From contig CAWFBS010000014.1 in the NCBI GenBank assembly GCA_963814115.1, forward strand, positions 20,556 to 84,555: a DNA stretch of 64,000 nucleotides, in the 5' to 3' direction. The position numbers and the translations under genes were made by a program. Source of the DNA: an uncultured Chloroflexia bacterium. Its GTDB lineage: Bacteria; Chloroflexota; Limnocylindria; Limnocylindrales; CSP1-4. The notes below the pieces were generated by a model that had not been told where the DNA came from, did not search any database, and was given only the letters and a program-made list of their open reading frames with translations. Below are positions 6,156 through 64,000 of this stretch, piece by piece; positions within the stretch are counted from its first letter, which is position 1; every line of letters begins with the position of its first letter.

Positions 6156-6159
6156 GGGA

Positions 6160-49153: not shown

Positions 49154-49188
49154 GGCGAGCCTGCGCTGGTCGCGGCCCGATGTCGGCG

Positions 49189-49744: not shown

Positions 49745-49805
49745 CCGGAACCAGCCGCTGAGTATCTCCTCCGGGCCGAGCGCCCGGGCCAAGCAGGTCC
49801 GTCCG

Positions 49806-51167
49806 TTGGATACACGACACATCTGGCGCGCGGCCCTCGGAGAGCTCCAGGTCGCCCTCTCGCCGGCCAACTTCGAGACGTGGCTTCGGCATACGTCGCT
49901 GGTCGAGGTGGATGACACCCGGTTCCGGATCGCCGTTCCGAACGGGTTCGCAAAGGACTGGCTGGAGACCCGCTATCGCTCCCTGATCTCGCAGACGCTC
50001 GCCCGGATCGTGGGCTACAGCGTCGCGGTGGAGTTCATGGTGCGGCCAGACGCCGGCCTCGCCGAGCCGGGCACGGAAGGGGTCGCTGCGCCGCCGCCGG
50101 ACGTCCGGGTGGAGCCGACCAGGGTCGGCGGCGATGGCTCGTCGGCCAACGTCAACCCCCGCTACACCTTCTCGAACTTCATCGTCGGGTCGGCAAACCG
50201 GCTGGCCCACGCGGCCGCGCTCTCGGTAGCGGAGCGGCCGGGCCACGCCTACAACCCGCTCTTCCTGTACGGCGGCGTAGGCCTGGGCAAGACCCACCTG
50301 ATGCACGCGATCGGCAACGCGGTCGTGGCCCGCTTCCCGCGCAAACGCGTGGTCTACGCGACCAGCGAGAAGTTCACCAACGAGTTCATCACGAGCATCC
50401 AGCAGGGCCGAATCGACGACTTCCGGTCGCGCTACCGGCGAATCGACCTGCTCCTGATCGACGACATCCAGTTCATCGCCGACAAGGAGCGGACCCAGGA
50501 GGAGTTCTTCCACACGTTCAACGCCATCCACGAAGACGGCAAGCAGATCGTCCTCTCGTCGGATCGCCCGCCGAAGCAGATCGTCACGCTCGAGGAGCGG
50601 CTTCGGAGCCGGTTCGAGTGGGGCCTGATCGCGGACCTCACGGCGCCCGACCTGGAGACACGGATCGCCATCCTCCGGGCCAAGGCGGAGGATTCGGCCG
50701 TCCCGATCGGCTCGGATGTCATCGAGTTCATCGCGCGCAAAGTCGTCAGCAACATACGCGAGCTCGAGGGCGCGCTCAACCGGGTGGTGGCATACGCGAG
50801 CATGGGCGCCATGCCGATCACGATCGAGCTCGCCCAGGCGGTCCTCTCCAACGTCCTGTACAACCCCAAGAAGCGCCAGGTCACCACCGAGAAGATCGCC
50901 CGGGCGGTCGCCGACTATTACGGCGTCGGCCTCGAGGCCCTCCGCGGCCAGAAGCGCGACAAGGCGATCGTCACGCCCCGCCAGATCGCGATGTTCCTGA
51001 TGCGCGAGGAAACGGACGTCTCCCTGCTGCGCATCGGCGCAGAGCTGGGGGGTCGGGACCACTCGACCGTTCTCCACGCCTACGACAAGATCAACCGCGA
51101 GGCGGCCCTCAACGACGAGATGCGCAGGGATATCGCCGCTGTCCGCGAGATGATCTACGCGGACTGA
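49806..51167 (+). CDS. dnaA: chromosomal replication initiator protein DnaA
   Basis: Domain I (…IWRAALGELQVALSPANFETWL…), AAA+ Walker A GGVGLGKTHL, and the domain IV HTH (…RQIAMFLMREETDVSLLRIGAELGGRDHSTVLHA…). Start is uncertain (TTG 49806). The upstream portion of the track ORF from 49554 is likely non-coding. Confidence 0.9.
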   Translation: MDTRHIWRAALGELQVALSPANFETWLRHTSLVEVDDTRFRIAVPNGFAKDWLETRYRSLISQTLARIVGYSVAVEFMVRPDAGLAEPGTEGVAAPPPDVRVEPTRVGGDGSSANVNPRYTFSNFIVGSANRLAHAAALSVAERPGHAYNPLFLYGGVGLGKTHLMHAIGNAVVARFPRKRVVYATSEKFTNEFITSIQQGRIDDFRSRYRRIDLLLIDDIQFIADKERTQEEFFHTFNAIHEDGKQIVLSSDRPPKQIVTLEERLRSRFEWGLIADLTAPDLETRIAILRAKAEDSAVPIGSDVIEFIARKVVSNIRELEGALNRVVAYASMGAMPITIELAQAVLSNVLYNPKKRQVTTEKIARAVADYYGVGLEALRGQKRDKAIVTPRQIAMFLMREETDVSLLRIGAELGGRDHSTVLHAYDKINREAALNDEMRRDIAAVREMIYAD

Positions 51168-51603
51168 CCCGCGGGCGGCCCGGCGCGGCCCCCACGACCA
51201 GGCGCCAACGGCCGCGGGGCGAGGTGGCGCGTGTGGAAAAGGCATCGAAATCGGTGGAAAACCGTGTCCCGGTGTGGACAAGGGGTCCCACCAGGGGCTC
51301 TCGGAAGCGGGCGAGTTGCGCTCTTTGGCGGGCTCCCACGACCGCGGGGCAAGCGTGACCGCTCATCATCCACGCGTCGTCCCGCACCCCGCCCACAACT
51401 CCGGGCGGCCGTCCGGCGTGACGGACGCGTCTATGCACCGGGAATTCCAGCGTCCGGGAGCGTGGCGCTCCACGCCATCAACACCATGATGACGACGGTG
51501 ATGACTCGATATGCGACCATGAACCAGACCACGAATCGATCGTGTTTGGGTCAACCGGACCGATCCTGCCCGCCCTTGTTCCGATCACCCGGAGTGATGT
51601 ACC
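51168..51603. other. oriC: candidate oriC (dnaA-dnaN intergenic) with DnaA boxes and an AT-richer stretch
   Basis: TGTGGACAA (51273-51281) is the exact reverse complement of the actinobacterial DnaA box TTGTCCACA. The related boxes TGTGGAAAA (51232-51240) and GGTGGAAAA (51253-51261) and further GTGGA-cores are nearby. A relatively AT-rich segment at 51480-51560 is a possible unwinding element. Confidence 0.55.
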
Positions 51604-52723
51604 CGTGAACCTCTCCGTCATCTGCGAGAACCTCGCCCGCGGCCTCTCCGTCGTCGGCCACGCGGTCTCCGGACGCAGCACCCTGCCCGTGCTCGCCAAC
51701 GTCCTACTGAGGACCGAGGACGCCGGCCTGAAGCTCACCGCCACAAACCTGGAGATCGGGATCACCTACTGGGTCCCGGGCCGGATCGAGACGGACGGTG
51801 CAATCACGGTCCCCGCCCGCCTCTTCGCGGAGATCATCAGTGGGCTCCCCTCACAGGAGCGCGTAGACCTCGAGGTCCGGAACGGGGATCGCCTCTTCAT
51901 CCGGGCCGGCCATTTCGAGACGACCCTCCGGGGCATCGACGCGGATGAGTTCCCGGCGATCCCTGCCGCAGGCGAGCGGCCCACGACCCGAATCAGCCAG
52001 CGCATCCTTCGCCGCGCGCTGTCCGAGGTCACCTTCGCGGCCGCCACGGACGAGGCGCGCCCGATCCTGACCGGCGTTCTCACCCGCTTCGAGGGAGACC
52101 GCCTGACACTCGCGGCAGCCGACAACTATCGGATCGCGATCACGACGATCCCGACCCTCGATGCCGTCGAGGACACGAGCGTCGTGGTCCCCGCCCGCTC
52201 GTACGCCGAGCTCGCGCGCGTCCTGGCCGACACGGACGACCCGGTGGAGCTGATCCTGTCACCCCAGAAGAACCAGATCCTGTTCCATGTCGAGGGTATC
52301 GACGTCGTGAGCCGGCTCATCGACGGCCAGTTCCCGAACTACCAGCAGGTGCTCCCCACGACGCACGCAACCCGTGTCGAGGTGGACCGCGACGACCTGC
52401 TCAAGGCCGTGCGCCTGGCTGGCTACATCGCGAGCTCGTCAGCCAACATCGTCAAGATGCAGGTCGCCCCGGACGGGAACGCCCAGGTCCTCGTGGCGGC
52501 GGCGGCCGAGGTCGGCGATCACCGCGGCCTCGTCGACGCGACGATCGAGGGCGACGGCACGACGATCGCCTTCAACGCCCGCTATCTGAGCGATGCCCTC
52601 CAGAACGTGGACGCGGACCGCTTTGTGATCGAGCTGAACGGGCCGCTCTCACCGGGGGTCTTCCGGCCCGCGGACGGCCGTGACTACACGCACGTGGTCA
52701 TGCCGGTTCGGACCACCTCGTAG
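51604..52723 (+). CDS. dnaN: DNA polymerase III beta sliding clamp
   Basis: VNLSVICENLARGLSVVGHAVSGRSTLPVLANVLL… and three-domain clamp architecture. GTG start at 51604. Confidence 0.9.
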
Positions 52724-52764
52724 ACGGCAATTCGGCGGCCGCCGGGCGGGCCGCGACGACCCCG

Positions 52765-53904
52765 GTGCTCACGTCCATCTCGATCCGGGACTTCCGCGGC
52801 TACGGGTCGCTGGAGGCCTCCTTCGGGGCGGGGGCCCACCTCGTCTGGGGCCCGAACGCCGCCGGGAAGACGAGCCTCCTGGAGGCCCTCGTGGTGTGCG
52901 CCCGCGGCTCCTCGCACCGCACCGTGACGGACCTTGAGCTCGTTCGCTGGGATGCCCCGTTCGCCCGCCTCGAGACCCGCCGCGTGCAGCCGGGTGCCGA
53001 CCCGCTCGGGCTCGAGGTCACGCTGGTGCGCGACGGCCCCGCGGGCGGGCGGAAGCGGATTCGGGTCAACGGGATCCCCCGTCGCACGACCAGTCTTGCC
53101 GGCCTCATGCGGGTGGTCATCTTCGCGCCGGAGGAGATGCTGCTCGTGGCCGGCCCGCCCGGGCTGCGACGTGCCGCGCTCGACGCGCTCGCCGGGCAGC
53201 GGATTCCCACCTACGCGGCCGATCTTGCGGCGTACGGACGCGTGCTGGCGCAGCGAAACGCGCTCCTGCGGGCCATCCGCGAGGAGCGCGCGACACCCGA
53301 TCAACTGCCCTCGTGGGATGCCCGCCTCGTGGAATCCGGCGCGGCGATCCTGGACGGGAGGCGGCGAATCCTCGAGGCGCTCGTCGCGCCACTCGCGGGA
53401 GCCCACGCGGAGATCGCACCGGAAGAGGGGTCCCTCGGCGTGACGTACGAAAGCAACGTGGTCCCGGTCGGGGCCGAAACATCCGCCGCCGCACTTGCCC
53501 GCCGGCTTGCCGAGACGGCCGCGAAGGAGGCCTGGAACGGGACGACGCTGGTTGGCCCGCACAGGGACGACCTTGCCTTCCGGCTGGACGGGCGCGACAT
53601 GGCCACGTTCGCATCGCGCGGACAGCAGCGCACCGCGATCCTCGCCTTCAAGCTCGCCGAGCTGGACCTCCTGACCGCCCAGGACGGGCGCCCGCCGCTT
53701 CTCCTGCTCGACGACGTCTTCAGCGAGCTGGACCCGGTGCGCCGGAGCCACCTGGTCCACCGCATCGCCGGCCTGCCGCAGGCGTTCGTCACGACCACGA
53801 CGCTCGACGACCTGGATCCCGCCCTGCGGGCCATCGGCGCGGCCTGGGAGGTGGTCCCGGACCCGGCGCTCGGTGCCCGGCTCGTCGGGCCCTCGGTGGG
53901 CTGA
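52765..53904 (+). CDS. recF: DNA replication/repair protein RecF
   Basis: Walker A GPNAAGKTSLLEAL, signature region, and Walker B LLLLDDVFSELD. dnaA-dnaN-recF order. Confidence 0.9.
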   Translation: MLTSISIRDFRGYGSLEASFGAGAHLVWGPNAAGKTSLLEALVVCARGSSHRTVTDLELVRWDAPFARLETRRVQPGADPLGLEVTLVRDGPAGGRKRIRVNGIPRRTTSLAGLMRVVIFAPEEMLLVAGPPGLRRAALDALAGQRIPTYAADLAAYGRVLAQRNALLRAIREERATPDQLPSWDARLVESGAAILDGRRRILEALVAPLAGAHAEIAPEEGSLGVTYESNVVPVGAETSAAALARRLAETAAKEAWNGTTLVGPHRDDLAFRLDGRDMATFASRGQQRTAILAFKLAELDLLTAQDGRPPLLLLDDVFSELDPVRRSHLVHRIAGLPQAFVTTTTLDDLDPALRAIGAAWEVVPDPALGARLVGPSVG

Positions 53905-53913
53905 GGGGCGCTC

Positions 53914-54273
53914 GTGTCGCCGGCCCGCCCCTACGACGACGAGCGTGTGCCTCGCCGTCGCTCACCTCGCCGCATCGGCGACCTCCTGCCCGAGGCGGCA
54001 CGGGCCCTGGGCCTGGAGGAGCAGCTCCGCTGGGCGCGGGCCGGCGCAGCCTGGGAGCGGCTGCTGCTCTCCCGCGCTCCTGCCGCGGTTGGTGGGTCGC
54101 GGCCCGTGCGCCTGGAGGGGGACGGAACGCTGGTCGTCGAGGCGAGCGCCCCGATCGTCGGCCAGGAGCTCCTGATGCGGGCCGAGGAGCTGCTCGCGGC
54201 GTTCGGTGATCTGCCCGACGGGATCCGGGCCGAATCGCTGCGGGTGGTGGTGGGCAGGGGTATCATCCGGTGA
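53914..54273 (+). CDS. DUF721 (DciA-like) protein
   Basis: 119-aa protein after recF (…LEEQLRWARAGAAWERLL…VRLEGDGTLVVEASAPIVGQELLMRAEELL…), the conserved recF-DUF721 arrangement of Actinobacteria. Confidence 0.7.
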   Translation: MSPARPYDDERVPRRRSPRRIGDLLPEAARALGLEEQLRWARAGAAWERLLLSRAPAAVGGSRPVRLEGDGTLVVEASAPIVGQELLMRAEELLAAFGDLPDGIRAESLRVVVGRGIIR

Positions 54274-54361
54274 CCTCGGCGGGCGGCCACCGCCCGCAGC
54301 GCGGTCGCCCGCCACCGGCGTCACGCCGGCCCGCACCCGAGCGTCAGGTCCGTCGAATCGC

Positions 54362-56653
54362 ATGGCCGTCCGACTCCAGATGAAGCTCGGCCTCGTGCCC
54401 GAGCATGAGCGACTCGAGGACTCCCCGGACACCGTTGCCATCGTCGAGCCGACGATCGGGGCGACGGCCCGCTCCAAGGGGAGCCTATTCCTCGTTGTGA
54501 CGGGCGGGGGCAAAGCCCGGCGCCTTCGCGATGCCACCCACCTCGTGGCGGACACGATCCAGGGCGAGTACTACTACGACGAGTCGGCCGGCCTCGTCGT
54601 GTGCCTGGAGAAGGCGATCCGCGCCGCGAACCGACGCCTCCTCGCCCAGCGGGACCGGCTCGGACTGGGCGACGGGCCGACCGGCCCGATCGGCGTCGGC
54701 ATCGCCGTGGTCCGTGGCAACGAGCTCTACGTCGTGACGACCGGCCCCGTCGAGGCGTACCTGGTTCGACAGGCACACCTGATGACGCTCCCGGACGCCG
54801 GCCGCGGCCGCGGCCTGCCGATGGAGGACCCCGCGCCGGTCGTGTGGCGCGGCGAGATCGCGGTTCGCGACTCACTCGTGCTCGTGTCGTCCAGCCTGAC
54901 CGCGAAGCTGGGCCCAGACGAGCTCAAGGATGCCGTGGTGACGCTCCACCCCCAGGCGGCCATGGAGCACCTCCACCACCGGTTCGTGGCAGCCGGCGGC
55001 GCGGGCAGCGATGCCGCCCTCGCCCTGGAGGCCGCTGAGGTGTCGGCGACAGCCCAGCGGGGCCGCCTGATTCCGGTGCGGCCGCCCGAGCCGCTCGCGG
55101 GCCAGCCCGACCACTCCCCGATCCCCCTGGTCGACTCGGTCGGTGACGGCATGGCGGCGGTCTCGTCCGGCGCAAGCCGCGCCCGAAGCGCCGCCGGGAA
55201 CGCGCTGACCGGGCTGGCCGGACGGCTCCAGGACCTGCTCCCGCGGCGCGGGACTCGCTATCGGCGGGTCACGCCCGCCGCGACCCGCCGCGAATCTCAG
55301 AAACGGGCGGCGGTCGCGGTCCTCGCGTTCGTGGGGGTCGCTGCCGTGCTCGGGGTCGGGCTGTGGGTCATCGGCGGCGCCGGCGGCACTGCGGAGATCC
55401 CGAAGATCAACGCCGGCGAGAACGCGCTCGCCGCTGCCCGGGAGGATGTCCGGCTCGTCTTCGACAACGGCACGGACCTGATCGCTGCAGACCCACAACG
55501 CGCCGAAGGGCTGCTGAAGGACGCGCTTACCAACGTGGCGGCCGCGTCGACCGCCGGAATCCCGGCCTCGGTCGCCGGCCCCCTGCGTTCGCAGGTGACG
55601 GCGGGGCTGGATCGCCTGTACGGGGTCGTGGAAGTGGCGCCCCAGACAGCCTTCTCGTTTGCCTCGCAGAGACCAGCCTTCGACCTCGGCGGGCTCGTCC
55701 GGGGTCCGGACGGGGCGCCCTACGTCCTGGATCGCACCACCAAGGCCGTCTACCGGATCAACCTGTCATCCCGGAAGGCCGTCGCGATCATGAAGGCCGG
55801 CCAGGCGGTGGCGAGCGCCGGCATCAAGGTGGGCGTCCCGCGCTTCCTCGCCGTGGGCGGCCCGGACCTCCTGATGCTCGACGACAAGAACATCCTCTGG
55901 CGCTGGCGGCCCACGGATACCACCGGGAAGGGCGTCCTGCGGAGGCTGCCGGTCCAGGAATCCGCCTCGTGGGGCACCGACATCCTCGGGATCGGCACCT
56001 TCGTCGCCAACTTCGACGCCGCGCTCTACAACCTGTACGTCCTGGAGCCGTCGCAGCAGCAGATCCTGCGCTACACCATGCTCGCGGATGGCTCCAGCTT
56101 CCCGGCAGCGGCAACCGGCTACCTGGCGACGCCGCTGGACATCAGCAAGGTGACGTCCATGTACATCGACGGCGAGGTCTATCTGGCCGACGCCGGCGTG
56201 GTCGAGCGCTTCGTGGGCGGCAGCTCCGGCGGCTGGTCGCTCGCCTCGCCGGGCGACGACGTGCTCCGCCCGACCCGCGACTACACGCTGATCGACTCGC
56301 CGGACCCACGCCGCCAGGGGACGCTGTACGTCTTCGACGCGGCGAACGCGCGGGTGCTGGCATTCGACAAGCTGACCGGCGCGTACCTGGCGCAGTACCG
56401 CCCCGCCGGCGGGAGCCAGGCGTGGTCCCAGCTTCGGGACTTCTACATTCAGCCGCGCTCGCCCGGCCAGGCCCCGGCGATCTATTGGATCGACGGAACC
56501 ACGCTCGGCACCGCGATCCTCCAGCCCGTGCCCGCAGCCGCTCCGAGCGGCTCTCCCGCCCAAAGCCCCGGGGCGGGCGCCTCGGCGACCCCGGCGCCAT
56601 CGCGGACGCCCGGCGCGACACACAAGCCGTCCCCGACGCCCCGCAAGACCTAG
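54362..56653 (+). CDS. membrane protein: cytoplasmic PP2C/PPM-fold-like domain (apparently catalytically degenerate), single TM, extracellular beta-propeller-like repeats
   Basis: ATG 54362 (the track start 54206 overlaps DUF721 and is rejected). N-terminal ~300 aa align in pattern to PPM phosphatases (LVVTGGGKA ~ DGMGG; GIAVVRGNELYVVTTG; SLVLVSSSLTAKL ~ SDGL) but the metal-binding Asp are replaced. TM helix AAVAVLAFVGVAAVLGVGLWVIGG. About 450-aa ectodomain with YVLD/LYVL/LYVFD/IYWIDG blade-like repeats and an Ala/Pro/Ser-rich tail. Confidence 0.45.
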   Translation: MAVRLQMKLGLVPEHERLEDSPDTVAIVEPTIGATARSKGSLFLVVTGGGKARRLRDATHLVADTIQGEYYYDESAGLVVCLEKAIRAANRRLLAQRDRLGLGDGPTGPIGVGIAVVRGNELYVVTTGPVEAYLVRQAHLMTLPDAGRGRGLPMEDPAPVVWRGEIAVRDSLVLVSSSLTAKLGPDELKDAVVTLHPQAAMEHLHHRFVAAGGAGSDAALALEAAEVSATAQRGRLIPVRPPEPLAGQPDHSPIPLVDSVGDGMAAVSSGASRARSAAGNALTGLAGRLQDLLPRRGTRYRRVTPAATRRESQKRAAVAVLAFVGVAAVLGVGLWVIGGAGGTAEIPKINAGENALAAAREDVRLVFDNGTDLIAADPQRAEGLLKDALTNVAAASTAGIPASVAGPLRSQVTAGLDRLYGVVEVAPQTAFSFASQRPAFDLGGLVRGPDGAPYVLDRTTKAVYRINLSSRKAVAIMKAGQAVASAGIKVGVPRFLAVGGPDLLMLDDKNILWRWRPTDTTGKGVLRRLPVQESASWGTDILGIGTFVANFDAALYNLYVLEPSQQQILRYTMLADGSSFPAAATGYLATPLDISKVTSMYIDGEVYLADAGVVERFVGGSSGGWSLASPGDDVLRPTRDYTLIDSPDPRRQGTLYVFDAANARVLAFDKLTGAYLAQYRPAGGSQAWSQLRDFYIQPRSPGQAPAIYWIDGTTLGTAILQPVPAAAPSGSPAQSPGAGASATPAPSRTPGATHKPSPTPRKT

Positions 56654-56727
56654 ACCCCTTCGCCGCTGTTCAGGGACGGCCCGAACGCTCCACGGGACGC
56701 GGCGCCCGGAGGTGGGATAATCCTGCC

Positions 56728-57270
56728 ATGGTCGGGCGGCTGATCGAGATGTCCGTCGAGAGCGTGCGGGTCCACATGCTCTCGACCCAGCACGTCGTGA
56801 TCCTCCGCGAGATGGAGCGTGACCGGTACCTCCCCATCTGGATCGGCCCGTGGGAGGCGAGCGCGATCGCCATGAAGCTCCAGGACCAGGTCCCCGAGCG
56901 ACCGCTGACCCACGACCTGCTCTCGACCGTCCTCGACGTGCTCGGGGCGACCGTTCGCGAAGTGATCATCGCGGACCTTGCCGACGACACGTTTCACGCC
57001 CGGATCATGCTGGAGGCGGCGGGACGGCCGATCGAGGTCGACTCCCGCCCATCAGACGCGCTGGCCCTTGCCGTTCGGACCGGTGCCCGGATCTTCGCCG
57101 CGGAGGCCGTCCTGGACCGGGCGGGCGTGGAGCCCGACAAGGGCCCCACCGGCGAGCAGGGCGGGGAGCCGATTGACGAGTCCAAGCTGTCGGTGTTCCG
57201 CGACTTCGTGAACTCGCTCGACGTGGAGCCCGGCGCCGACGAGCGACGCGAGCGACCGCCCCGCGAGTGA
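56728..57270 (+). CDS. bifunctional nuclease (BFN/DUF151) family protein
   Basis: MVGRLIEMSVESVRVHMLSTQHVVILREMERDRYLPIWIGPWEASAIAMKL… is the typical BFN domain. The overlapping 635-aa track ORF from 55363 is artefact. Confidence 0.7.
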   Translation: MVGRLIEMSVESVRVHMLSTQHVVILREMERDRYLPIWIGPWEASAIAMKLQDQVPERPLTHDLLSTVLDVLGATVREVIIADLADDTFHARIMLEAAGRPIEVDSRPSDALALAVRTGARIFAAEAVLDRAGVEPDKGPTGEQGGEPIDESKLSVFRDFVNSLDVEPGADERRERPPRE

Positions 57271-57302
57271 GTGCCGGCCCGCCGCGCCGCGGCCGGCCCG
57301 CC

Positions 57303-58121
57303 TCAGCCGACGATCGTCGACCCTCTCGCCAGCGCTCGCCGCCTGCCCGCCCACATCAGGAGGCGCAGGCTCCAGAAGTCCACGACCGAGCGCCAGATCA
57401 CCGACAGCCTTGCCCCGGTCTGCGAGCCCGCCGTCCGCGGGTAGTGGTCGACGCCGACCTCCACCACGTTCCGGCCGGCGGCGCGGACCTTGATGAGAAG
57501 CTCCGCGGAGAAGAACGCCCCGCCGGATGCGACGTGGACCCCGGCCAGTGCCCCGCGCCGGAACAGCTTGCAGGCACAGTCCACGTCCCGGATCCGGAGC
57601 CCGAAGAAAACCCGGTTCGCCAGCCAGTAGAGGCGCGCGTAGAGCGTCCGGAGCGCCGGGTCCGCCCGCCGGATCCGGAACCCCACCACGGCGTCCGGGG
57701 CATCCGGTCCTGCCAGACGGGCGGTGAGCCGGCCCAGATCCGCCACCCGGAACTGCCGATCGCCATCGGTGAATGCCACGAGGCCGAACCGCGCAGCACG
57801 GAAGCCGGAGCGCAGGGCAGCGCCGTAGCCGAGATTCGTCGCGTGGTGCACCGCACGGACGAGACCCGGATTCGCGGCGGCCAGCCGGTCCGCGATCTGG
57901 CCGGTGCGATCGGTTGAGCCGTCGTCGACGGCGATGATCTCGAACCGGTCGGCGAGGGCGGGCAGCGCAGCCAGCGCCTCCTCCACGAGGCCCTCCAGGT
58001 TGGCCTCCTCGTTGTGGGCCGGGAAGAAGTACGAGAGCTCGGCGACGCGGGCCGCCGTGGCGGGGGCGGGCGTCGGTGCCGTCGCGGGAGCAGCGGGCGG
58101 GTCGGCTTCGGCCAGCGTCAT
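57303..58121 (-). CDS. GT2 polyprenol-phosphate sugar synthase (Dpm1/Ppm1/GtrB-like)
   Basis: GT-A motifs: …LSYFFPAHNEEANL…, the DXD motif IIAVDDGSTDRT, and …VAFTDGDRQF… ATG start at 58119-58121 overlaps the upstream gene's stop. Confidence 0.75.
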   Translation of the reverse strand: MTLAEADPPAAPATAPTPAPATAARVAELSYFFPAHNEEANLEGLVEEALAALPALADRFEIIAVDDGSTDRTGQIADRLAAANPGLVRAVHHATNLGYGAALRSGFRAARFGLVAFTDGDRQFRVADLGRLTARLAGPDAPDAVVGFRIRRADPALRTLYARLYWLANRVFFGLRIRDVDCACKLFRRGALAGVHVASGGAFFSAELLIKVRAAGRNVVEVGVDHYPRTAGSQTGARLSVIWRSVVDFWSLRLLMWAGRRRALARGSTIVG

Positions 58122-59704
58122 GGCCCTATCGTAGCCCGCGCGACGCCGGCTGCCCGCGGCCCCACCACGCGGAGGAGCGACTGCGTTCCGCTCGGATCGG
58201 CCACCTGGTCGAGCAACCACGCCCCCTCGAGCCCCGGCACGTCCTCGTCGCGCCGCACGAGGTAGACCGGCCGCCGGCCCAGGTTCTCGCGGATCACGTC
58301 GTCAACGCTGCCGAGGTTCGCGTCCAGGCGGGTCCGGTCGTCGATCACGCTGACGTCGGGACGCTCGCCCAGGATCAGCTGGCGATACCACAGGGGCGTG
58401 GAATAGTCCCACCAGGTCACGAGGACGGCGTTCGGCGCAACAACCTGCAGCACCCAGCGGCTCCAGCCGGTGGCGCTCGTGTCGGTCGACTGATCCACCA
58501 CCAGCCGCGTCGTGGGGGCCGCAAGGACCGCCGGCGCGACGAGGGCGCCGCAGACGACCGCCGCGGCGAGAAGGCGCCGCGCCTCTCCGGCCCGCCGCCC
58601 GGCGTTCGGCTGGACGAGCAGCCACGCCTCCAGGGCCTCGACCAGTCCATCCGCGGCGATCGCGAGCCAGCTCACGACGATGAGGATCGGCCCCAGGTAG
58701 TAGCGCTCGATGTCTGCATTCGTGTACGAGACCGCGAACCAGCCCGTCATCACGAGCCACGTGGTTGTCAGGAGGGCGTACCGCGGCCGGCGGATCGCGG
58801 TGACCAGGAGGCTCGCGGGGATCAGCGCCACCAGCGGCCCGAACTGCGACGTCGCCAGGGCGACCAGCGCGGCGGCCTTGCCCGCCAGGTCGGTCAGGAC
58901 CCCGCCGAGCGCGCCGCCGAACTGCAGCCCCAGGACCACGTACCAGAAGCCGCCCCACGTGTCCGGATGGCCGTACACGAGTGGAGCCCCCATCGCTGCC
59001 CGGACCGGCAGCTCCAGGTAGAGGAGCGCGGCGATCCCGAAGATGGCCAGGGCGCAGCGCCCTACGAGGGCCGGACGCCGCCAGGTGCCGGGCTCGACGG
59101 CGAGGATGAAGAGGGCGATCCCGGGTGCGAGCAGGATGGTGAGCGCCTGGTTGCCCAGCGCGACCCCATAGAGCGCCGCGGCGCCGACAAGCCAGCGATC
59201 CGCGCCCGCGCTGCCGGTCCGGGCCCGTTCCTCCCAGCCGACCAGCACCAGCAGCAGCCCGGCGACGAAGGCGAGATGGAGCATGTGCGGGTCGGCGAAC
59301 GAGCCGACTCGCCATGGGATCTGGGTCAGCGTCAGCAGGAGGCCGGCGGCGGCGCCCACCAGCGTTCGACCGGTCAGGCGGCGGACAAGCAGCACGGTCA
59401 ACCCGACCGCCACGCCGAACGTGATCGCGTTGAGCAGGTTCATGCGGAACGCGGGCTCGCCGAGCGGTGCCAGCACGGAGCTCGCGAGCCAGCCCAGCAG
59501 CACGTAGCTTGGGTACCCGGTCGGATGGGCCGTGCCGAGCACGGGCGCGACAACTTGGAACTCACCGGTGTCCCAGAGCCCCTGGCCCGGCAGCAGCGTG
59601 GATCGCGCCAGCGCGAACGCCACGATGCCCACGAGCGCGGGCGCGGCACCCTGCGCGAGCGCGCCCCAGCGCCCCTCGAGCCCCGGCGGGCGGCCGCCCC
59701 TCAC
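58118..59704 (-). CDS. DUF2723 (TMEM260-like) GT-C family membrane glycosyltransferase
   Basis: GTG start at 59704 overlaps the upstream GT39 stop (GTGA). …LWDTGEFQVVAPVLGTAHPTGYPSYVLLGWLASSVLAPLGEPAFRMNLLNAITF… matches DUF2723. About 11 TM helices followed by a C-terminal soluble domain. The track start at 60082 is rejected. Confidence 0.7.
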   Translation of the reverse strand: MRGGRPPGLEGRWGALAQGAAPALVGIVAFALARSTLLPGQGLWDTGEFQVVAPVLGTAHPTGYPSYVLLGWLASSVLAPLGEPAFRMNLLNAITFGVAVGLTVLLVRRLTGRTLVGAAAGLLLTLTQIPWRVGSFADPHMLHLAFVAGLLLVLVGWEERARTGSAGADRWLVGAAALYGVALGNQALTILLAPGIALFILAVEPGTWRRPALVGRCALAIFGIAALLYLELPVRAAMGAPLVYGHPDTWGGFWYVVLGLQFGGALGGVLTDLAGKAAALVALATSQFGPLVALIPASLLVTAIRRPRYALLTTTWLVMTGWFAVSYTNADIERYYLGPILIVVSWLAIAADGLVEALEAWLLVQPNAGRRAGEARRLLAAAVVCGALVAPAVLAAPTTRLVVDQSTDTSATGWSRWVLQVVAPNAVLVTWWDYSTPLWYRQLILGERPDVSVIDDRTRLDANLGSVDDVIRENLGRRPVYLVRRDEDVPGLEGAWLLDQVADPSGTQSLLRVVGPRAAGVARATIGP

Positions 59705-61107
59705 CAGCCGAGCACTCGCGCCCACACGAGCCCCCAGGTCTCCACCGCGATCGAGACCGCGATCAGCCCTCCGACCAGCAGGCCGCCGCGCGCCGCGCGC
59801 AGCCCATGGCGGGCCACGAGCCGCTCCGCGCCGAGGGCGAGCGGGACGAGCAGGAACGGCGCGAAGTCCAGGCTGAAGCGGTAGCCGAACTGGACCCAGC
59901 CCTGCGAGAAGTGCATCAGGTTGACGATCGCGATGACGAGCGCGGCAAGGAATCCGCCGATCACGCGCCGGTCCCGCAGGAGCGGCAGCGCGGCGGCGGC
60001 GAGGAGCCACGCCGGGCTCGTGAGAAGCAGGCTCATCCCCACGGGATTGGGGACCAGCCATGAGCACCCGGCCGAGCTCCACAGCTCACGCGGCACGCCC
60101 GCGTCGCAGGCGGGCATGATGTCCGGCAGGCCACCCAGCATGATCCCCAGGTTCTGGGGGATGTAGCGGATGTCCTGGAGCGACCACGCCGCATGGTAGT
60201 TGAGCTCCGGGTAGGCCCACACCTCGTACTGGTAGAGCGACTCGTAGACGGGGTTGAAGAGCGTTCCGCTGACCACGAGGTTGTAGACGAGGAGGGCGCC
60301 CACCGGGATGGCCACGCCCAGCGCGGCGCTCATCGTGCGCCGGGTCCACGAGCCGCCCCCGCCGACGAAGAGCAGGAAGACGGCCCCGAAGACCACGGTC
60401 AGCCGGCTCGTCACGGCGAGGCCGAGGAGGATCCCGGCGGCGACCTGGCGCCGGTCGAGGAGCGTGCCCGGCTCTCCCGGATCGAGCGCGGCCGATCGGT
60501 CGTCGGCATCGAGCGCGATCGCGACGGCGGCGAGCGTGAGCCCCACCGCGACCACGTGCGCGAGGAACCAGGTGGTCCCGAGCGACGACGCGTACCAGAG
60601 CGCGGTTCCGCCCCCCAGGAAGATGGTCAGGGCGGCCCGCAGCCCCGCCCGGACCGGGAGCCGACCGAGGAGCCAGAAGGCGATCCCCACATCGAGGGCG
60701 CCGAGCACGACCGCGAGCAGTGTCTCGTCCGTCGCCATCCCCCAGATCGCGACGAAGGGAAGGAGGATCACCGCGGGCAGGGGCGGGAACGGGATCATGC
60801 CCCGGCCCGTCTCGTTCCCGGCGGCGTCCAGCACGGGAACCACGTCGTTGAAGAAATCGTTCCCGGGCGAGGTGGCCGTGGCCGGAACCGGGTACTGGAT
60901 GGAGACCTGGCCGTGGAGGTAGGCGTCCGCCTGCCAGACGAAGTGGTTGTAGACCGTCGGCCAGTACGGGCGGGTGAGGAAATACAGCACGAGGAAGGCG
61001 ACCACCAGGCCGACCCCCAGGCCGAGGGCGGAGCGGGACGGAACGGGGGCTTCTGTGCCGCGCGGAGGGGCAGGGGCCGTCGAAGCCTCGGCTATACTCC
61101 GGTTCAC
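59701..61107 (-). CDS. GT-C membrane glycosyltransferase, GT39/ArnT (PMT_2)-like
   Basis: 468 aa, at least 10 TM helices. Profile typical of polyprenol-phosphate-sugar-dependent GT-C enzymes (…FLTRPYWPTVYNHFVWQADAYL…GMIPFPPLPAVILLPF…). Confidence 0.6.
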   Translation of the reverse strand: MNRSIAEASTAPAPPRGTEAPVPSRSALGLGVGLVVAFLVLYFLTRPYWPTVYNHFVWQADAYLHGQVSIQYPVPATATSPGNDFFNDVVPVLDAAGNETGRGMIPFPPLPAVILLPFVAIWGMATDETLLAVVLGALDVGIAFWLLGRLPVRAGLRAALTIFLGGGTALWYASSLGTTWFLAHVVAVGLTLAAVAIALDADDRSAALDPGEPGTLLDRRQVAAGILLGLAVTSRLTVVFGAVFLLFVGGGGSWTRRTMSAALGVAIPVGALLVYNLVVSGTLFNPVYESLYQYEVWAYPELNYHAAWSLQDIRYIPQNLGIMLGGLPDIMPACDAGVPRELWSSAGCSWLVPNPVGMSLLLTSPAWLLAAAALPLLRDRRVIGGFLAALVIAIVNLMHFSQGWVQFGYRFSLDFAPFLLVPLALGAERLVARHGLRAARGGLLVGGLIAVSIAVETWGLVWARVLGW

Positions 61108-61137
61108 CTCAGCGCTCGATCACGGAGGCCGTTCCCC

Positions 61138-64000
61138 TTGGCTGGCCCCGCACCGGGCGAGCGGGCGCGGGCGGGCGAGCAGGCCCGGGTGCGGCTTCGG
61201 GACGTCGCCGTCCCGCTCGGCGTCCTTCTCGCGCTCGGCCTCGTCCTTCGGCTCATCATCGCATACGTTCTGCTGCCCGGGTCGGGGTTCAAGGTCGACG
61301 TCGCCTCGTTCAACGGTTGGGCCGTGGAGCTCGCCAGGAACGGGCCGTACGGGATCTACGACCGCCCGATCTTCATCGACTACACGCCCGGCTACCTGTA
61401 CGTCCTGTGGGGGCTCGGCCTCGTTGCCCAGCTTCTGGGTGGGCCCGGCGCCGCGCCGGGCGACCTCCTGAAGCTGCCGGCGATCCTGGCCGACCTGGGG
61501 CTCGCGGTCGCTGTCTTCCAGCTCGCCGCGGACCTGGGAGCCCGACGCCGCCCGGCGCTGGGGGCGGCCGCGCTGGTCCTGTTCGTGCCCGTCACGTGGT
61601 TCGACAGCGCCGTCTGGTCGCAGGTCGACTCGGTCGGTACCCTCGTCCTGCTCCTCGCCGTCCGCGACCTGTGGCGCGGTCGCGACGAGCGCGCGACCCT
61701 GCTCACGACGGTGGCCGCCATCATCAAGCCCCAGTTCGGGATCCTGATCCCGCTGGCGGCGGTCCTGATCATCCGGCGCAACCTCGTCACGCGGCCGCCA
61801 GGCCACGGCCCACGCCGCATCCTGAGCACGACCCTGGTCGGGCTGGTCACGGCGCAGGTGCTGTGCCTGCCCTTCGGGCTGACCATCGTCGGACTGCTCC
61901 GCCAGATCATCGACACGGCCGCCGGGTACCCATGGCTGACCGTCAACGCGTTCAACCCATGGGCGCTCGTCACGCAGGCCGGCTCGGGCCTTGCCCTGAA
62001 CGGCACCTGGATCCGGGACGCCACCCAGGCCGGGCCGGACGGGGGGGCGGGCTTCCTGGTCATGGGCATTCCGGCCGTCGTGGTCGGTTCCGGCCTCCTG
62101 CTCGGCATGATCGCATTCCTGGCGGCCGTGATCTGGCGCCGCGACGATCGGCGAACGTTCCTTGTCGCCCTGACTGTCCTGGCGATCGCCTTCTTCGTCC
62201 TGCCGACCCGGGTCCACGAGCGCTACCTCTACCCATTCTTCGCGCTCGGGGCCGTGCTGGTGGCCGTGAGCCCGCGCTGGATCGGCGTCTACGTTGCCCT
62301 GGCCGCCGCGAACGCGGCGAACCTCTACGGCATCCTGACCGAGCCGTTCTACGCGAACCTGGGGCTGGAGCCCATGCTCGGGGCGCTCGGCGGCCTGGGA
62401 GCCCAGCTGGGGGATGCAGCCCGTTCGTGGGGCGGGGTGGCGAGCAGCGCCGTCGTCCACGCCGGCGGGCTGCTGGCGGGACTCGTCTACCTGGTGCGGC
62501 CGGCGTCGCAGGAGACCGACGCGACCGCCGCCCTCAGCGCGAACGACCTCGGACCCGCCGTTGCGACCACTGGATCGTCCGACGCACCGCCGGGCGCTGG
62601 GGCCGCGCTCGGGTCGGCCCTGGGTCGGGCCGCCGTCGGCGTGCGCGCCCTCGCCCGCCGCCCGACCTTCGATCGCTCACGGCTGCTCGACAACGAGGGT
62701 GGCGGAAGGCTCGACCGGCTCGACCTGTGGTTCATCGTGGTGCTCGTCGTCGCGTCGCTGTTCCTGCGGACGTTCCGCCTCGGCGAGCCGCTGCGGATGC
62801 ATTTCGACGAGGTGTACCACGCCCGCACGGCCGCCGAGTTCCTGCAGGACTGGCGCTACGGCGAGCCGCATGCGATCTACGAATGGACCCACCCGCACCT
62901 CGCCAAGTACGTGATGGCGGGAGGGCTCGTCGCGTTCGGGGACGACACCGTGACCGCCACGAGCGCGCTCGGCGTGCCCGTGACGGATGTCGCGATCGAG
63001 GAGGGCTGGGACGGTCCCGCGGGTTCGGGCGCCACCCAGATCCACGGCGGCGACCGGCTGTACGTCGCCACGGGCGCCGGTGTCCGTGTCTTCGACCTGC
63101 AGACCCGCGCCCTGCTCGCCACCTTCGTACTGCCGGGCGCACAGGCTGTCACCATCGACCCGATCGACCACCGGCTCTTCGTCGGAACCGCTTCGGGCGA
63201 CATCCTGACCCTCGACACGGCGGTCAGCGCCGGCGACCTCAGCGCCGGCAACGCCGGCACCCCAGGGGGCGCTCCCCTCGTCACCCTGACCCACCTGGCG
63301 GCTGCGGGCGCGCCCGTCGAACGGCTCTGGGTGACCGGCGACGGGGCAACGATCGTCGCGGGAACGTCCGGCGACAGCCTGGTGTCGCTCGACGCGGCCA
63401 GCGGCACGCGGCTCGCCTCGTTCAGCCTGCCCGGCTGGGCGGAGATCGCGGATGCGGGCACCGTCGACGCGCTCGTGGCCGAGCCGGCGCTCGTGGCCGA
63501 CCCGACCTTCGTCGCGGCCCAGCTGTCCCGGATCCTCGGTGGGACGGCCGCCACGTACGAGCAGCAGCTCCGCTCGGGGGCGGCGCGGGTGACCATCACG
63601 ACGGCGATCTCGGCGCAACGGACCCAGCTCGATTCCGCCATCGCGAGCGGCGCCCTTGCCGGCGTCAGCGTCACGAGCGTGGCCCGCATCGCCGTGGCGG
63701 ACGCCGCTGGCGTGACCTTCGTCGAGCCAACCAGCGGAGCCGTGACCGGCGCGATCCCCCTCGAAGGTGGCGCCACCGGCGTGGTCAGGGCGGATGGCCT
63801 GGACTCGCCGATGCTCTACGCGGCAACCGGGAGCTCGCTCGCCGCCATCGTGATCCCGGCGGACGGCACTGCCCCGTCGCTCGCCCAGACCGTGTGGATG
63901 CCCGCAGCGATCAGCCGGGTCACCTACGACGCGGCCAGCCAGATGATCCACGCGCTGGGTCGCACCACCGACGGGACCGGCTGGACCGTCTACGTCGTGG
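61138..64000 (+). CDS. large (>950 aa) multi-domain GT-C-type membrane glycosyltransferase-like protein, 3'-truncated by the window end
   Basis: Open frame from TTG 61138 to the window end with no stop; it is not in the ORF track. The N-terminal polytopic module has GT-C hallmarks (…GFKVDVASFNGWAVELARNGPYGIYDRPIFIDYTPGYLY…, …TRVHERYLYPFFAL…). A second TM is followed by a PMT-loop1-like motif (MHFDEVYHARTAAEF…YEWTHPHLAKY). Then come repeated beta-strand-rich soluble repeats. It is divergent from the GT39 operon. Confidence 0.6.
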   Translation, partial: MAGPAPGERARAGEQARVRLRDVAVPLGVLLALGLVLRLIIAYVLLPGSGFKVDVASFNGWAVELARNGPYGIYDRPIFIDYTPGYLYVLWGLGLVAQLLGGPGAAPGDLLKLPAILADLGLAVAVFQLAADLGARRRPALGAAALVLFVPVTWFDSAVWSQVDSVGTLVLLLAVRDLWRGRDERATLLTTVAAIIKPQFGILIPLAAVLIIRRNLVTRPPGHGPRRILSTTLVGLVTAQVLCLPFGLTIVGLLRQIIDTAAGYPWLTVNAFNPWALVTQAGSGLALNGTWIRDATQAGPDGGAGFLVMGIPAVVVGSGLLLGMIAFLAAVIWRRDDRRTFLVALTVLAIAFFVLPTRVHERYLYPFFALGAVLVAVSPRWIGVYVALAAANAANLYGILTEPFYANLGLEPMLGALGGLGAQLGDAARSWGGVASSAVVHAGGLLAGLVYLVRPASQETDATAALSANDLGPAVATTGSSDAPPGAGAALGSALGRAAVGVRALARRPTFDRSRLLDNEGGGRLDRLDLWFIVVLVVASLFLRTFRLGEPLRMHFDEVYHARTAAEFLQDWRYGEPHAIYEWTHPHLAKYVMAGGLVAFGDDTVTATSALGVPVTDVAIEEGWDGPAGSGATQIHGGDRLYVATGAGVRVFDLQTRALLATFVLPGAQAVTIDPIDHRLFVGTASGDILTLDTAVSAGDLSAGNAGTPGGAPLVTLTHLAAAGAPVERLWVTGDGATIVAGTSGDSLVSLDAASGTRLASFSLPGWAEIADAGTVDALVAEPALVADPTFVAAQLSRILGGTAATYEQQLRSGAARVTITTAISAQRTQLDSAIASGALAGVSVTSVARIAVADAAGVTFVEPTSGAVTGAIPLEGGATGVVRADGLDSPMLYAATGSSLAAIVIPADGTAPSLAQTVWMPAAISRVTYDAASQMIHALGRTTDGTGWTVYVV

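Follow-up and report, generated by a model that had tools for sequence, protein, structure and literature searches.

On balance, though with modest confidence, we propose that a gene cluster adjoining the replication origin of uncultured soil and freshwater Chloroflexota (class Limnocylindria) specifies polyprenyl-phosphate-sugar-dependent extracytoplasmic glycosylation, in which mannose is the most probable sugar and protein O-mannosylation the probable core. In the window analysed here (the whole stretch of 64 kb, GC ~71%) the cluster comprises three genes on the minus strand and, divergent from them, a giant gene on the plus strand that continues past the window end. The cluster had been placed beside the dnaA locus, and dnaA indeed maps to 49554-51167. 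All four frames of the original prediction are present at their coordinates, and codon-position GC backs them beyond mere openness: third-position GC is 0.89 for 57303-58121, 0.91 for 58118-59704, 0.93 for 59701-61107 (all minus strand) and 0.91–0.92 along 61138-63999 (plus strand), and only 0.52–0.70 in the upstream extensions of these frames. The giant frame, missing from the ORF track because ORFs running off the source end are not listed there, is stop-free from its TTG start at 61138 to base 64000 (954 codons, in keeping with the predicted length of more than 950), and homologues from 80 genomes align with it colinearly, at identities of 93% to 41%. Three of the encoded proteins together hold four GT-C modules; the count of four "GT-C-type proteins" put forward earlier is thus right for modules, but not for proteins.

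The minus-strand genes, with that of the GT-C protein P3 first, a TMEM260-like gene second and a GT2 gene last, form a compact operon defined by third-position GC and by two 4-nt start/stop overlaps. These overlaps had been predicted and are real, since the junctions read ATGA (58121-58118) and GTGA (59704-59701); the three genes may well be co-transcribed or translationally coupled. Direct reading of the sequence shows that only 30 bp (61108-61137) separate P3 from the giant gene, with a GGAGG at 61124-61128, 9 nt ahead of the TTG start. A consensus scan of 56600-61500 detected neither a sigma-70-like promoter nor an intrinsic terminator.

The GT2 protein (272 aa; 57303-58121, minus strand) is a predicted polyprenyl-phosphate-sugar synthase of the Dpm1/Ppm1 type, as had been proposed. 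It matches Pfam Glycos_transf_2 (3.1e-25), and its closest solved relatives are polyprenyl-phosphate glycosyltransferases throughout: ArnC (1e-11), Pyrococcus DPMS (5MLZ, 8e-8) and GtrB (1e-6). The motifs DDGS, TDGDRQF (DxDxQ-type) and DxxxK recur unchanged across 62 orthologues. We found no TM helix or hydrophobic segment in this protein, whose C-terminus is an amphipathic helix; the catalytic subunits DPM1/Ppm1 likewise lack a TM helix, whereas GtrB and ArnC of the three-component systems possess two C-terminal ones. The GT2 protein scores below every NCBIfam equivalog cut-off, and because DPMS shares the place of best solved relative with ArnC and GtrB, the sugar specificity cannot be read from it; it is the partner genes that suggest mannose as the hexose.

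The TMEM260-like protein (528 aa; 58118-59704, minus strand), which consists of a GT-C core and a short C-terminal extracytoplasmic domain, justifies its earlier assignment to DUF2723 (PF11028, 1e-20, 74.7 bits vs a cut-off of 24.2) and is a true homologue of human TMEM260 (9RQL, E=8.8e-15, residues 19–455). Its residues D45 and H60, equivalent to the donor-binding D52 and H67 of TMEM260 (10.64898/2026.03.17.711096), are invariant in 55 orthologues, together with R334. The residue aligned with the proposed general base of TMEM260, D441, is Asp in the window's protein, but Asp in only 5 of the 55 orthologues and Ser in 44. This variation, along with the absence of the TPR acceptor-binding domain, makes functional equivalence to TMEM260 uncertain.

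P3 (468 aa; 59701-61107, minus strand) is, according to its structure model, a GT-C-fold glycosyltransferase of an unnamed family that has no Pfam model. Its former description as GT39-like is unsupported: neither P3 nor any of 28 diverse relatives has a Pfam match over the homologous region, and the model fits ALG12, Pmt4, ArnT, AglB, PIG-M and ALG3 about equally well.

The giant protein, ~1,750 aa long in relatives, starts with an ALG6/PIG-M-like GT-C module (hereafter module A), to which a disordered linker joins a GT39 PMT module split by a propeller. Module A (residues 1–455; 61138-62502, plus strand), which substantiates the predicted further GT-C-like module in this frame, is structurally nearest to eukaryotic ALG6, ALG3 and PIG-M and scores below gathering for Pfam GT87. 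Asp54, located early in external loop 1 right after TM1, is nearly invariant, and K197-P-Q and H360-E-R-Y are invariant. The Ala/Pro/Gly-rich linker (residues 456–525; 62503-62712, plus strand; pLDDT <50 for 461–525) is probably cytoplasmic, as suggested by the Arg-rich flank ahead of the next TM helix (positive-inside rule). The PMT module then begins (62713-62949, plus strand) with TM1 and external loop 1, which bears the motif MHFDEVYHA...THPHLAKY (residues 554–591), including the catalytic D557 E558 (encoded at 62806-62811) and the THPHLAKY helix; 43 Limnocylindria homologues all retain F556, D557, E558, V559, Y560, H561, H585, P586, H587 and K590. The remainder of PMT and PMT_4TMC lie past the window end and were found in full-length relatives, with about five additional C-terminal TM helices. 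The PMT module reaches 39 bits against the NCBIfam Pmt equivalog (cut-off 800). The predicted "beta-rich repeats" belong to a WD40/YVTN-like beta-propeller (residues ~612–954; 62971-64000, plus strand) of ~400 aa, modelled with confidence over residues ~617–953; it continues for ~50 residues past the window end and includes a helical excursion at residues 789–836. The motif and the beta-rich domain of the original prediction therefore stand, but not their order, as the propeller is inserted inside PMT external loop 1 rather than appended behind the motif. Both this 400-aa insert and the low score against the Pmt equivalog speak against O-mannosylation.

Neighbourhoods were compared, as recommended with the original prediction, in the 61 Limnocylindria loci whose flanks were long enough. 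The full gene set is present in 47 of them; GT2 is kept in 58, and P3 or the TMEM260-like gene is singly absent in 11, the others being retained. Such synteny inside a single class may in part stem from common descent and not from function, and the surrounding housekeeping genes (order dnaA-dnaN-recF-DciA) are equally conserved in the same loci. This conservation and the single absences would suit a set of independent membrane glycosyltransferases that share no pathway and are neighbours only through inheritance in a rearrangement-poor, origin-proximal region. We regard this as very improbable, given that 4-nt overlaps tie three of the genes into one unit, that module A and PMT form a single polypeptide, and that the divergent pairing of P3 with module A-PMT recurs far outside the class.

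This recurrence in distant low-GC contigs is a new observation and lends the proposed system independent support. Of 56 informative loci of distant P3 relatives (contig GC 0.30–0.67), 36 have a module A homologue no more than 6 kb away, and it is divergent and adjacent to P3, as here, in 15 of these, plus 6 on short contigs. Module A and an unsplit PMT form one protein in two loci (L122 and L087); in another (L119) module A is a separate gene adjoining an unsplit PMT, and many other distant loci display a DE-loop match after module A; the compact module A-PMT fusion without propeller (~800 aa) occurs in distant low-GC contigs. Since these contigs differ greatly in GC, local synteny shared with Limnocylindria cannot explain the pairing. 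Against it counts that a homologue of the window's GT2 was detected near P3 in just 5 of 76 distant loci. In L122 and L087, the two distant loci annotated in detail, neither a GT2 nor a TMEM260-like or PI-lipid gene adjoins the unit of P3 and module A-PMT; two genes away from P3 there is a LytR_cpsA_psr gene, with a FemAB gene nearby.

The LytR_cpsA_psr and FemAB genes, like the affinity of GT2 to ArnC and GtrB, would accord with a three-component-like system of a generic kind, its target another envelope polymer (for instance a secondary cell-wall glycopolymer, teichoic-acid-like polymer or S-layer glycan) and its sugar not mannose but, for example, glucose, GlcNAc or a pentofuranose; GT2 and GT-C systems are known to modify O-antigens, LTA/WTA and capsules (PMC11127046, PMC7389260). 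We consider this doubtful: the window contains no recognizable polymer-synthesis genes (Wzx/Wzy, ABC exporter, TagF-like), and the donor/catalytic motifs of the GT39 and TMEM260-like modules are invariant. Moreover, for two of the four GT-C modules the characterised members of the family, to our knowledge, use only Dol-P-Man or polyprenyl-P-Man as donors and only Ser/Thr of proteins as acceptors.

A PI-anchored mannolipid or lipoglycan, like mycobacterial PIM/LM, is a more serious, if still rather unlikely, alternative product. In relatives, including the closest one (L001), a convergent PIM-like operon follows directly downstream of the giant gene, outside the window. Across 80 loci it contains a GT4 (66), two Lip_A_acyltrans proteins (58 and 57), myo-inositol-1-P synthase Ino1 (54) and a CDP-alcohol phosphatidyltransferase (53), and in one locus (L028) it is present without the GT2/DUF2723/P3 side. 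Its products have their best NCBIfam matches among enzymes that such a pathway would need: PI-phosphate or archaetidylinositol-phosphate synthase (118–135 bits), inositol-3-phosphate synthase (533 bits) and PIM acyltransferase (137 and 92 bits). These enzymes would form an acylated PI-glycoside in the cytoplasm. Outside the membrane, module A (PIG-M/PimE-like) and P3, perhaps joined by the PMT-like and TMEM260-like modules, would extend it with GT2-made polyprenyl-P-mannose. The operon argues for a lipid acceptor and against a protein-centred function, and D54, K197 and H360 of module A recall D58, K195 and H322 of PimE (PMC12041525). On the other hand, all the NCBIfam matches are under the curated cut-offs, the GT4 is not assignable to PimA, module A stays below gathering for GT87, a PI operon is missing from the 6 kb around the unit of P3 and module A-PMT in L122 and L087, and the protein acceptors of GT39 and TMEM260 enzymes count here as well.

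Returning to protein O-mannosylation, GT2 would make a polyprenyl-phosphate-hexose on the cytoplasmic membrane face, to be flipped outward by a flippase; that the cluster has no GtrA-like flippase gene weighs against the model. On the outer face, the PMT module could place the first sugar on Ser/Thr of exported proteins via the invariant Asp of its DE loop, and the neighbouring propeller may select acceptors, by analogy with the MIR domain of eukaryotic PMTs and the TPRs of TMEM260 and TMTC. Module A and its divergent partner P3 might draw on the same donor to lengthen or branch the glycan, and the TMEM260-like enzyme could serve a separate class of acceptors. Family, fold, residue conservation and synteny partly support the predicted glycosylation system, while we infer its sugar (mannose), its acceptors (protein vs lipid), the division of labour and the role of the propeller. 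Precedents exist in Actinobacteria (Ppm1/Pmt, PMC5882110), in streptococci, where GtrB and a GT-C glycosylate Ser/Thr-rich regions (PMC12041528), and in PimE, which a figure legend names as an elongating mannosyltransferase (PMC12331936).

Like actinobacterial Ppm1 and Pmt (Rv2051c/Rv1002c in M. tuberculosis; also S. coelicolor), the cluster pairs a GT2 lipid-sugar synthase with a PMT-type GT-C that has an Asp-Glu motif right after TM1 in external loop 1 (PMC12331936, PMC5882110) and, in full-length orthologues, a PMT and PMT_4TMC core without a MIR domain. It differs in that PMT is far under the Pmt equivalog, follows a second complete GT-C module in one fused chain, is split in loop 1 by the propeller and has the extra C-terminal helices, and in that synthase and transferases are clustered, together with two further GT-Cs. 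In the three-component systems (GtrA/GtrB/GtrC, CsbB/GtcA/YfhO, ArnC/ArnT, streptococcal GtrB/PgtC2) a polyprenyl-P-sugar GT2 gene also adjoins genes of extracytoplasmic GT-Cs (PMC11127046, PMC12041528), but there is one GT-C module instead of four, and a GtrA-type flippase gene is absent from the cluster here. The mycobacterial PIM/LM pathway (PgsA1-PatA-PimA operon; PPM-dependent GT-Cs PimE and MptA/B/C) resembles the arrangement in relatives, where PI-phosphate-synthase-like, inositol-phosphate synthase, PatA-like and GT4 genes stand beside PPM-type GT-Cs; the host, however, is Chloroflexota rather than Actinobacteria, and module A is structurally closest to the eukaryotic enzymes. Human TMEM260 (9RQL/9RQM/9RQN), a protein O-mannosyltransferase for IPT domains, is homologous to the bacterial protein over ~435 residues of the GT-C core and shares a C-terminal extracytoplasmic domain and probably an arginine (R355, ERY in the bacterial protein); the bacterial protein has 528 aa instead of 707, no TPR "fingers", Gly at the R264 position, and a gene in an operon with GT2 and another GT-C. 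The L122 fusion has its homologues among Patescibacteria proteins of ~800 aa (Woesebacteria, Saccharimonadales; "glycosyltransferase family 39 protein" in NCBI), in which PMT is unsplit and the propeller, the long linker and the extra C-terminal helices are all lacking. Module A precedes PMT in them as it does here, the motifs xxxD, KPQ, R[VM]HER[YH], FDEVYHA.TA and THPP.AK are common to both, and in the distant low-GC contigs with the compact fusion a P3-family gene is the divergent neighbour too.

Since the window contains approximately 71% GC, open frames alone are weak evidence for genes, and we therefore analyzed the GC content by codon position. Third-position GC is 0.89–0.93 in all four frames claimed in the original prediction, and goes down to 0.52–0.61 in the 5' extensions of two longer mechanical ORFs; the plus frame upstream of 61138, antisense to the neighboring gene, has a value of 0.70. 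The 4-nt start/stop overlaps proposed to chain the three minus-strand genes are real: ATGA at 58121–58118 joins the genes of a family 2 glycosyltransferase (GT2, 57303–58121) and a TMEM260-like protein (58118–59704), and GTGA at 59704–59701 joins the latter to the gene of a GT-C protein that we call P3 (59701–61107). The divergent plus frame of the giant gene is likewise open, with no stop between the TTG at 61138 and base 64000; GGAGG is located 9 nt 5' of this TTG, and the spacer between the TTG and the divergent start codon, GTG at 61107, is only 30 bp long. A scan of region 56600–61500 with the sigma-70 and intrinsic-terminator consensus, which is uninformative for this lineage, returned zero sites, and an Rfam scan of region 48000–64000 at gathering thresholds gave no match.

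Searches with the giant protein retrieved 80 loci, nearly all from MAGs of the Chloroflexota class Limnocylindria, with the best match 93% identical. The typical locus starts on the plus strand with dnaA-dnaN-recF-DciA and the genes of an 815-aa and a BFN-domain protein, continues with GT2, DUF2723 (the TMEM260-like gene) and P3 on the minus strand, and ends with the plus-strand giant gene. Loci whose giant protein is as little as 41% identical still show this arrangement. In 61 loci, the sequence upstream of the giant gene extends over 4.6 kb or more; of these, 47 have all three minus-strand genes, seven lack P3, two lack the TMEM260-like gene, two have GT2 only, one lacks GT2, and two are rearranged, with none of the three. 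GT2, kept in 58/61 loci, is the best conserved of these genes (68–96% identity).

GT2 (272 aa) matches the Pfam family Glycos_transf_2 (PF00535, 3.1e-25), and its top relatives in the PDB are all polyprenyl-phosphate glycosyltransferases: ArnC (1e-11), the Pyrococcus Dol-P-Man synthase (8e-8) and GtrB (1e-6). The motifs DDGS, TDGDRQF and D181xxxK185 are invariant among 62 orthologs. The GT-A domain, the DxD motif and the polyprenyl-phosphate-transferring relatives are thus all in place, as expected for the DPM1/Ppm1/GtrB/ArnC type and in agreement with the earlier label of a Dpm1/Ppm1-like GT2. The protein falls below every NCBIfam equivalog cut-off (15 matches, the best 55 bits vs 529 for ArnC). 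TM helices are absent and the C-terminus is an amphipathic helix, a build that fits DPM1/Ppm1 catalytic subunits better than GtrB or ArnC. That the sugar would be mannose we infer solely from the mannose-using families of its partners. No gene for a small flippase of the GtrA/GtcA type is found beside the GT2 and GT-C genes of the cluster, since these overlap or lie only 30 bp apart and leave no room for one; the sole small neighbor encodes the BFN/DUF151 protein (180 aa, ~56728–57270, plus strand; PF02577, 7e-40). The BFN gene is convergent with that of GT2, with 32 bp between the stop codons, and is hidden within a longer spurious ORF (55363–57270).

The DUF2723 assignment of the second protein (528 aa) is secure, with 74.7 bits for PF11028 vs the gathering threshold of 24.2. 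Human TMEM260, for which a cryo-EM structure is available (9RQL), is matched with E=8.8e-15 over residues 19–455, i.e. ~435 residues. The functional residues of TMEM260 include D52, H67 and R355, which bind the donor, R264, and a proposed general base, D441, which is located in a luminal Rossmann-like domain (preprint 10.64898/2026.03.17.711096). D45, H60 and R334 of the bacterial protein are present in 55/55 orthologs; the HMMER alignment matches D45 and H60 to D52 and H67, while R334, from an ERY motif, is the probable counterpart of R355 according to our realignment. The position of R264 is occupied by Gly in the window protein. The residue aligned with D441, in a region of low alignment confidence, is Asp433 in the window protein, and is Asp in 5/55 and Ser in 44/55 orthologs. 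In TMEM260, acceptor recruitment is the task of a C-terminal TPR domain; the window protein lacks such a domain, as it stops at residue 528, its alignment to TMEM260 stops at residue 464 of the latter, and no TPR family of Pfam is matched. Based on the D441 and R264 positions and on the missing TPR, we suggest that this member of the family may differ from the human enzyme in mechanism and acceptor. We know of no function assigned to bacterial TMEM260/DUF2723 proteins.

P3 (468 aa) exhibits the polytopic GT-C fold common to transferases that use lipid-linked sugars. The original prediction labeled it as GT39-like, which did not survive our analysis: P3 belongs to no Pfam family and has no DE motif after TM1, and among 28 diverse relatives, likewise uncovered by Pfam, we found just one weak match to PMT_2 (1e-4), so the label is not justified. 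A sequence search of the PDB gave no match, NCBIfam gave one sub-threshold match to a Leptospira "putative glycosyltransferase", and the best 120 homologs are all without annotation. The family is small (1,928 representatives at E<=1e-3 among 1.84 billion sequences). External loop 1 contains an invariant Asp, D88, and a loop expected to face outward carries a conserved pair, Cys334/Cys348. P3 is thus a GT-C of an unnamed family.

The giant protein, which automated annotation already labels as "phospholipid carrier-dependent glycosyltransferase", is ~1,708–1,846 aa long in the loci that reach the stop codon, five excepted; judging from this length, the window holds ~55% of the gene. In L001, the locus closest to ours (93% identity), a gene call of 1,323 aa (L001:10001–13972) was rejected as the true length, and the early stop is probably an assembly frameshift. 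Similar premature stops occur in L015, L016, L017 and L072.

The N-terminal part (module A, residues 1–455) has a GT-C fold closest to enzymes of the ALG6/ALG3/PIG-M/PimE type. It is below the Pfam gathering threshold (N-terminal Alg6_Alg8 16.8–20.6 bits vs 25), and precomputed weak matches to GT87 and PIG-U exist in some homologs only. A nearly invariant D54 and the invariant K197-P-Q and H360-E-R-Y stand out in the family; D54, K197 and H360, which are kept from Limnocylindria to Patescibacteria-type homologs, may correspond to D58, K195 and H322 of PimE, the catalytic Asp at the beginning of the first juxtamembrane helix and the Lys and His that bind phosphate. A disordered linker (residues 461–525, pLDDT below 50) connects module A to a region with TM1 and external loop 1 of a PMT (residues 527–600), modeled with low confidence because the rest of the PMT domain is missing from the modeled fragment. 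This loop contains, right after TM1, the motif MHFDEVYHA, in which D557 and E558 are invariant among 43 homologs; the invariants of the loop in this set extend to F556-D-E-V-Y-H561 and H585-P-H587...K590, and the Patescibacteria-type homologs read FDEVYHA.TA. The Asp of this motif has its counterpart in D74 of MtPMT (PMC12331936).

The 954-aa fragment in the window has no PMT match in Pfam, as only about positions 1–80 of the profile fall inside the window. Full-length orthologs match profile positions 81–199 at residues ~1,008–1,137 and PMT_4TMC at ~1,323–1,483, followed by ~5 extra TM helices; the scores are 41–46 bits for PF02366 (cut-off 22.7) and 38–51 bits for PF16192 (cut-off 32.4). A search with the family profile identified residues 144–251 of yeast Pmt1 (6P25) with E=1.4e-7. 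The profile was needed here because single-sequence searches of the PDB were empty (P0001, the closest giant homolog) or marginal (a full-length ortholog, E=0.011 to a Pmt). The prediction of a PMT-type module is therefore upheld by the DE motif and the full-length profiles, but not as a contiguous core, as PF02366 positions 81–199 begin ~400 residues past the DE loop, nor as a Pmt equivalog, as NCBIfam "protein O-mannosyltransferase" (NF058602) reaches 39.3 bits vs a cut-off of 800, and in the C-terminal region only. The insert in the PMT is a WD40-like beta-propeller. In the bacterial PMT, horizontal helices precede TM2 in external loop 1 (PMC12331936). An Arg-rich segment before TM1 of the giant protein should be cytoplasmic, which would place the propeller on the extracytoplasmic side, next to the catalytic Asp.

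A profile built from distant P3 relatives identified, in metagenome contigs, 76 loci with less than 40% identity to P3 and GC of 0.29–0.74. A homolog of module A lies within 6 kb of P3 in 36/56 informative loci, in 15 of the 56 divergent and adjacent to it as in the window, and in this arrangement on six more short contigs; in many of the distant loci a PMT DE-loop match follows 3' of module A on the same strand. Two loci (L122:3507–7068 and L087:3370–7176) encode, divergent from the P3-family gene, a compact protein of 813 or 838 aa composed of module A, an unsplit PMT and PMT_4TMC, and in a third (L119:3464–7137) module A and the PMT are separate adjacent genes. The catalytic-type motifs of both modules are all conserved between the compact and the Limnocylindria forms. 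Homologs of the L122 protein are ~800 aa long, and the named ones are "glycosyltransferase family 39 protein" from Patescibacteria (Woesebacteria, Saccharimonadales). The three loci are on low-GC contigs, one of 792 kb, and neighbors in L122 and L087 include LytR_cpsA_psr, UvrD and FemAB genes. This recurrence indicates that the evolutionarily stable unit is P3 together with the module A-PMT protein, to which the Limnocylindria form, compared to the compact one, adds the propeller, the linker, the extra helices, the GT2 and TMEM260-like genes, and a PI-lipid operon. The data do not support a general partnership between GT2 and the P3 family, as homologs of the window GT2 were detected near P3 in just 5/76 distant loci. 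In five predicted proteins of the representative library (P0271, P0274, P0276, P0293 and P0334), P3-like and DUF2723-like segments form one long ORF, which in one case also includes a GT2 fragment. These are either genuine fusions or calls joined across the 4-nt overlaps, and we did not count them as "Rosetta-stone" fusions, since a 1-nt error at such an overlap would join the frames and many of the source assemblies may be error-prone long-read ones.

The lipid operon is found in relatives 3' of the giant gene and convergent with it (L006:15212–21833, L001:15240–21330 and ~50–65 other loci). It comprises a CDP-alcohol phosphatidyltransferase, myo-inositol-1-phosphate synthase (Ino1), two PatA-like Lip_A_acyltrans proteins and a GT4; per 80 loci, GT4 was found in 66, the acyltransferases in 58 and 57, Ino1 in 54 and the CDP-alcohol transferase in 53, and the loci without these genes are mostly too short to extend that far. 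It is also present in L028, where the GT2/DUF2723/P3 side is absent. By extrapolation, the operon should be located ~2.5–9 kb beyond the window end in this genome. Its best NCBIfam matches are of the expected families but all below cut-off, with 118–135 bits vs 170–180 for PI-phosphate synthase, 533 vs 638 for inositol-3-phosphate synthase, and 137 and 92 vs 209 for PIM acyltransferase, while GT4 is generic. The operon suggests that Limnocylindria possess inositol phospholipids and acylated PI-glycosides, and its adjacency to the giant gene is the main support for the chief rival model, in which the acceptor is a lipid and the cluster would assemble a mannolipid or lipoglycan anchored on PI. 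The similarity of module A to PIG-M and PimE points the same way. To our knowledge, characterized members of the GT39 and TMEM260 families use only Dol-P-Man or polyprenyl-P-Man, with protein Ser/Thr as the acceptor, and since these families account for two of the four GT-C modules, we favor protein O-mannosylation. The two models are compatible, since in mycobacteria one pool of polyprenyl-phosphate-mannose (PPM) serves both protein and lipid pathways.

A possible acceptor is encoded beside the cluster, namely the 815-aa protein (54206–56653, plus strand), conserved at this place in nearly all Limnocylindria loci. It has no significant match in Pfam or the PDB, and consists of an N-terminal cytoplasmic part, one TM helix (~364–396) and a beta-rich ectodomain with a Ser/Thr/Pro/Ala-rich C-terminal tail (…PAAAPSGSPAQSPGAGASATPAPSRTPGATHKPSPTPRKT), a type of tail known to be O-glycosylated in Actinobacteria and streptococci. 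Polyprenyl phosphate is also the substrate expected for a further enzyme of the window, encoded ~51 kb away from the cluster, a Glycos_transf_4 (MraY/WecA-type polyprenyl-phosphate sugar-1-phosphate transferase; 5091–6269, minus strand) beside SHMT. The remaining genes are of the housekeeping type (ATP synthase a/b, RF1, RF2, PBP2, gyrB, gyrA, secA, ftsEX, Ctp protease, smpB, yidC, jag). The dnaA-dnaN spacer contains two DnaA-box-like 9-mers on the minus strand, TTTTCCACA (51232–51240) and TTGTCCACA (51273–51281), 41 bp apart; together with the maximum of the cumulative GC skew at ~48–50 kb this is consistent with an oriC near dnaA, the number of boxes alone being no more than expected by chance.

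All functional statements on the cluster are predictions. In the mechanism we propose, GT2 would supply polyprenyl-P-mannose, the PMT module would start protein O-mannosylation, module A, fused to the PMT, would lengthen or branch the glycan together with its conserved partner P3, and the propeller would pick the acceptors. The fusion in one polypeptide argues that module A and the PMT act in one pathway. A figure legend of PMC12331936 lists PimE with the enzymes that attach more mannose units after MtPMT, and elongation of O-mannose by a GT-C would thereby have a precedent. We regard the general mechanism, an extracytoplasmic glycosylation system dependent on polyprenyl-phosphate sugars, as very likely, hold mannose and protein as the main acceptor with moderate confidence, and give the mechanism in its full form a little better than an even chance. 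More tentative, and in our judgment somewhat less likely than not, is the view that P3 and the fused module A-PMT protein work together as a GT-C machine of three modules, so far undescribed and passed on by inheritance in both Chloroflexota and Patescibacteria, that starts and elongates extracytoplasmic mannosyl glycans. Its Limnocylindria form would have gained a propeller in the PMT catalytic loop and taken on a Ppm1-like synthase, a TMEM260-like enzyme and the PI-lipid operon. If true, O-mannoproteins like those of Actinobacteria, PI-anchored mannolipids, or both would be expected in a lineage with reports of neither.

As far as we know, almost all characterized cases of protein O-mannosylation and of PPM-dependent lipoglycan assembly in bacteria are from Actinobacteria. 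Our literature search found no exception to this restriction or to the unassigned role of bacterial DUF2723, and nothing relevant on PIMs or GT-C mannosyltransferases in Chloroflexota; a 2026 paper on Limnocylindria genomics does not discuss envelope glycosylation. Every component is a member of a known superfamily. Several features appear to have no description in the literature that could be searched: a PMT whose catalytic loop is interrupted by a propeller, the fusion of this PMT to an ALG6/PIG-M-like GT-C, the unnamed GT-C family of its partner P3, a bacterial TMEM260 homolog in an operon with a Ppm1-type synthase, and a unit common to Chloroflexota and Patescibacteria-type organisms. One conserved cluster joins a predicted Ppm1-type synthase, a TMEM260 homolog, a GT-C family absent from Pfam and a PMT of unprecedented architecture, in a class that is abundant and uncultured in soil and freshwater. 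The presence of the P3/module A-PMT unit in genome-reduced Patescibacteria suggests an important envelope function, and the unit offers concrete targets for heterologous expression. Among known systems, the lipid operon of the relatives resembles the actinobacterial pgsA1-patA-pimA arrangement, and with the propeller inserted at the catalytic site the PMT family would have found a new way to select acceptors, next to the MIR domain of eukaryotic PMTs and the TPR domains of TMEM260 and the TMTCs.
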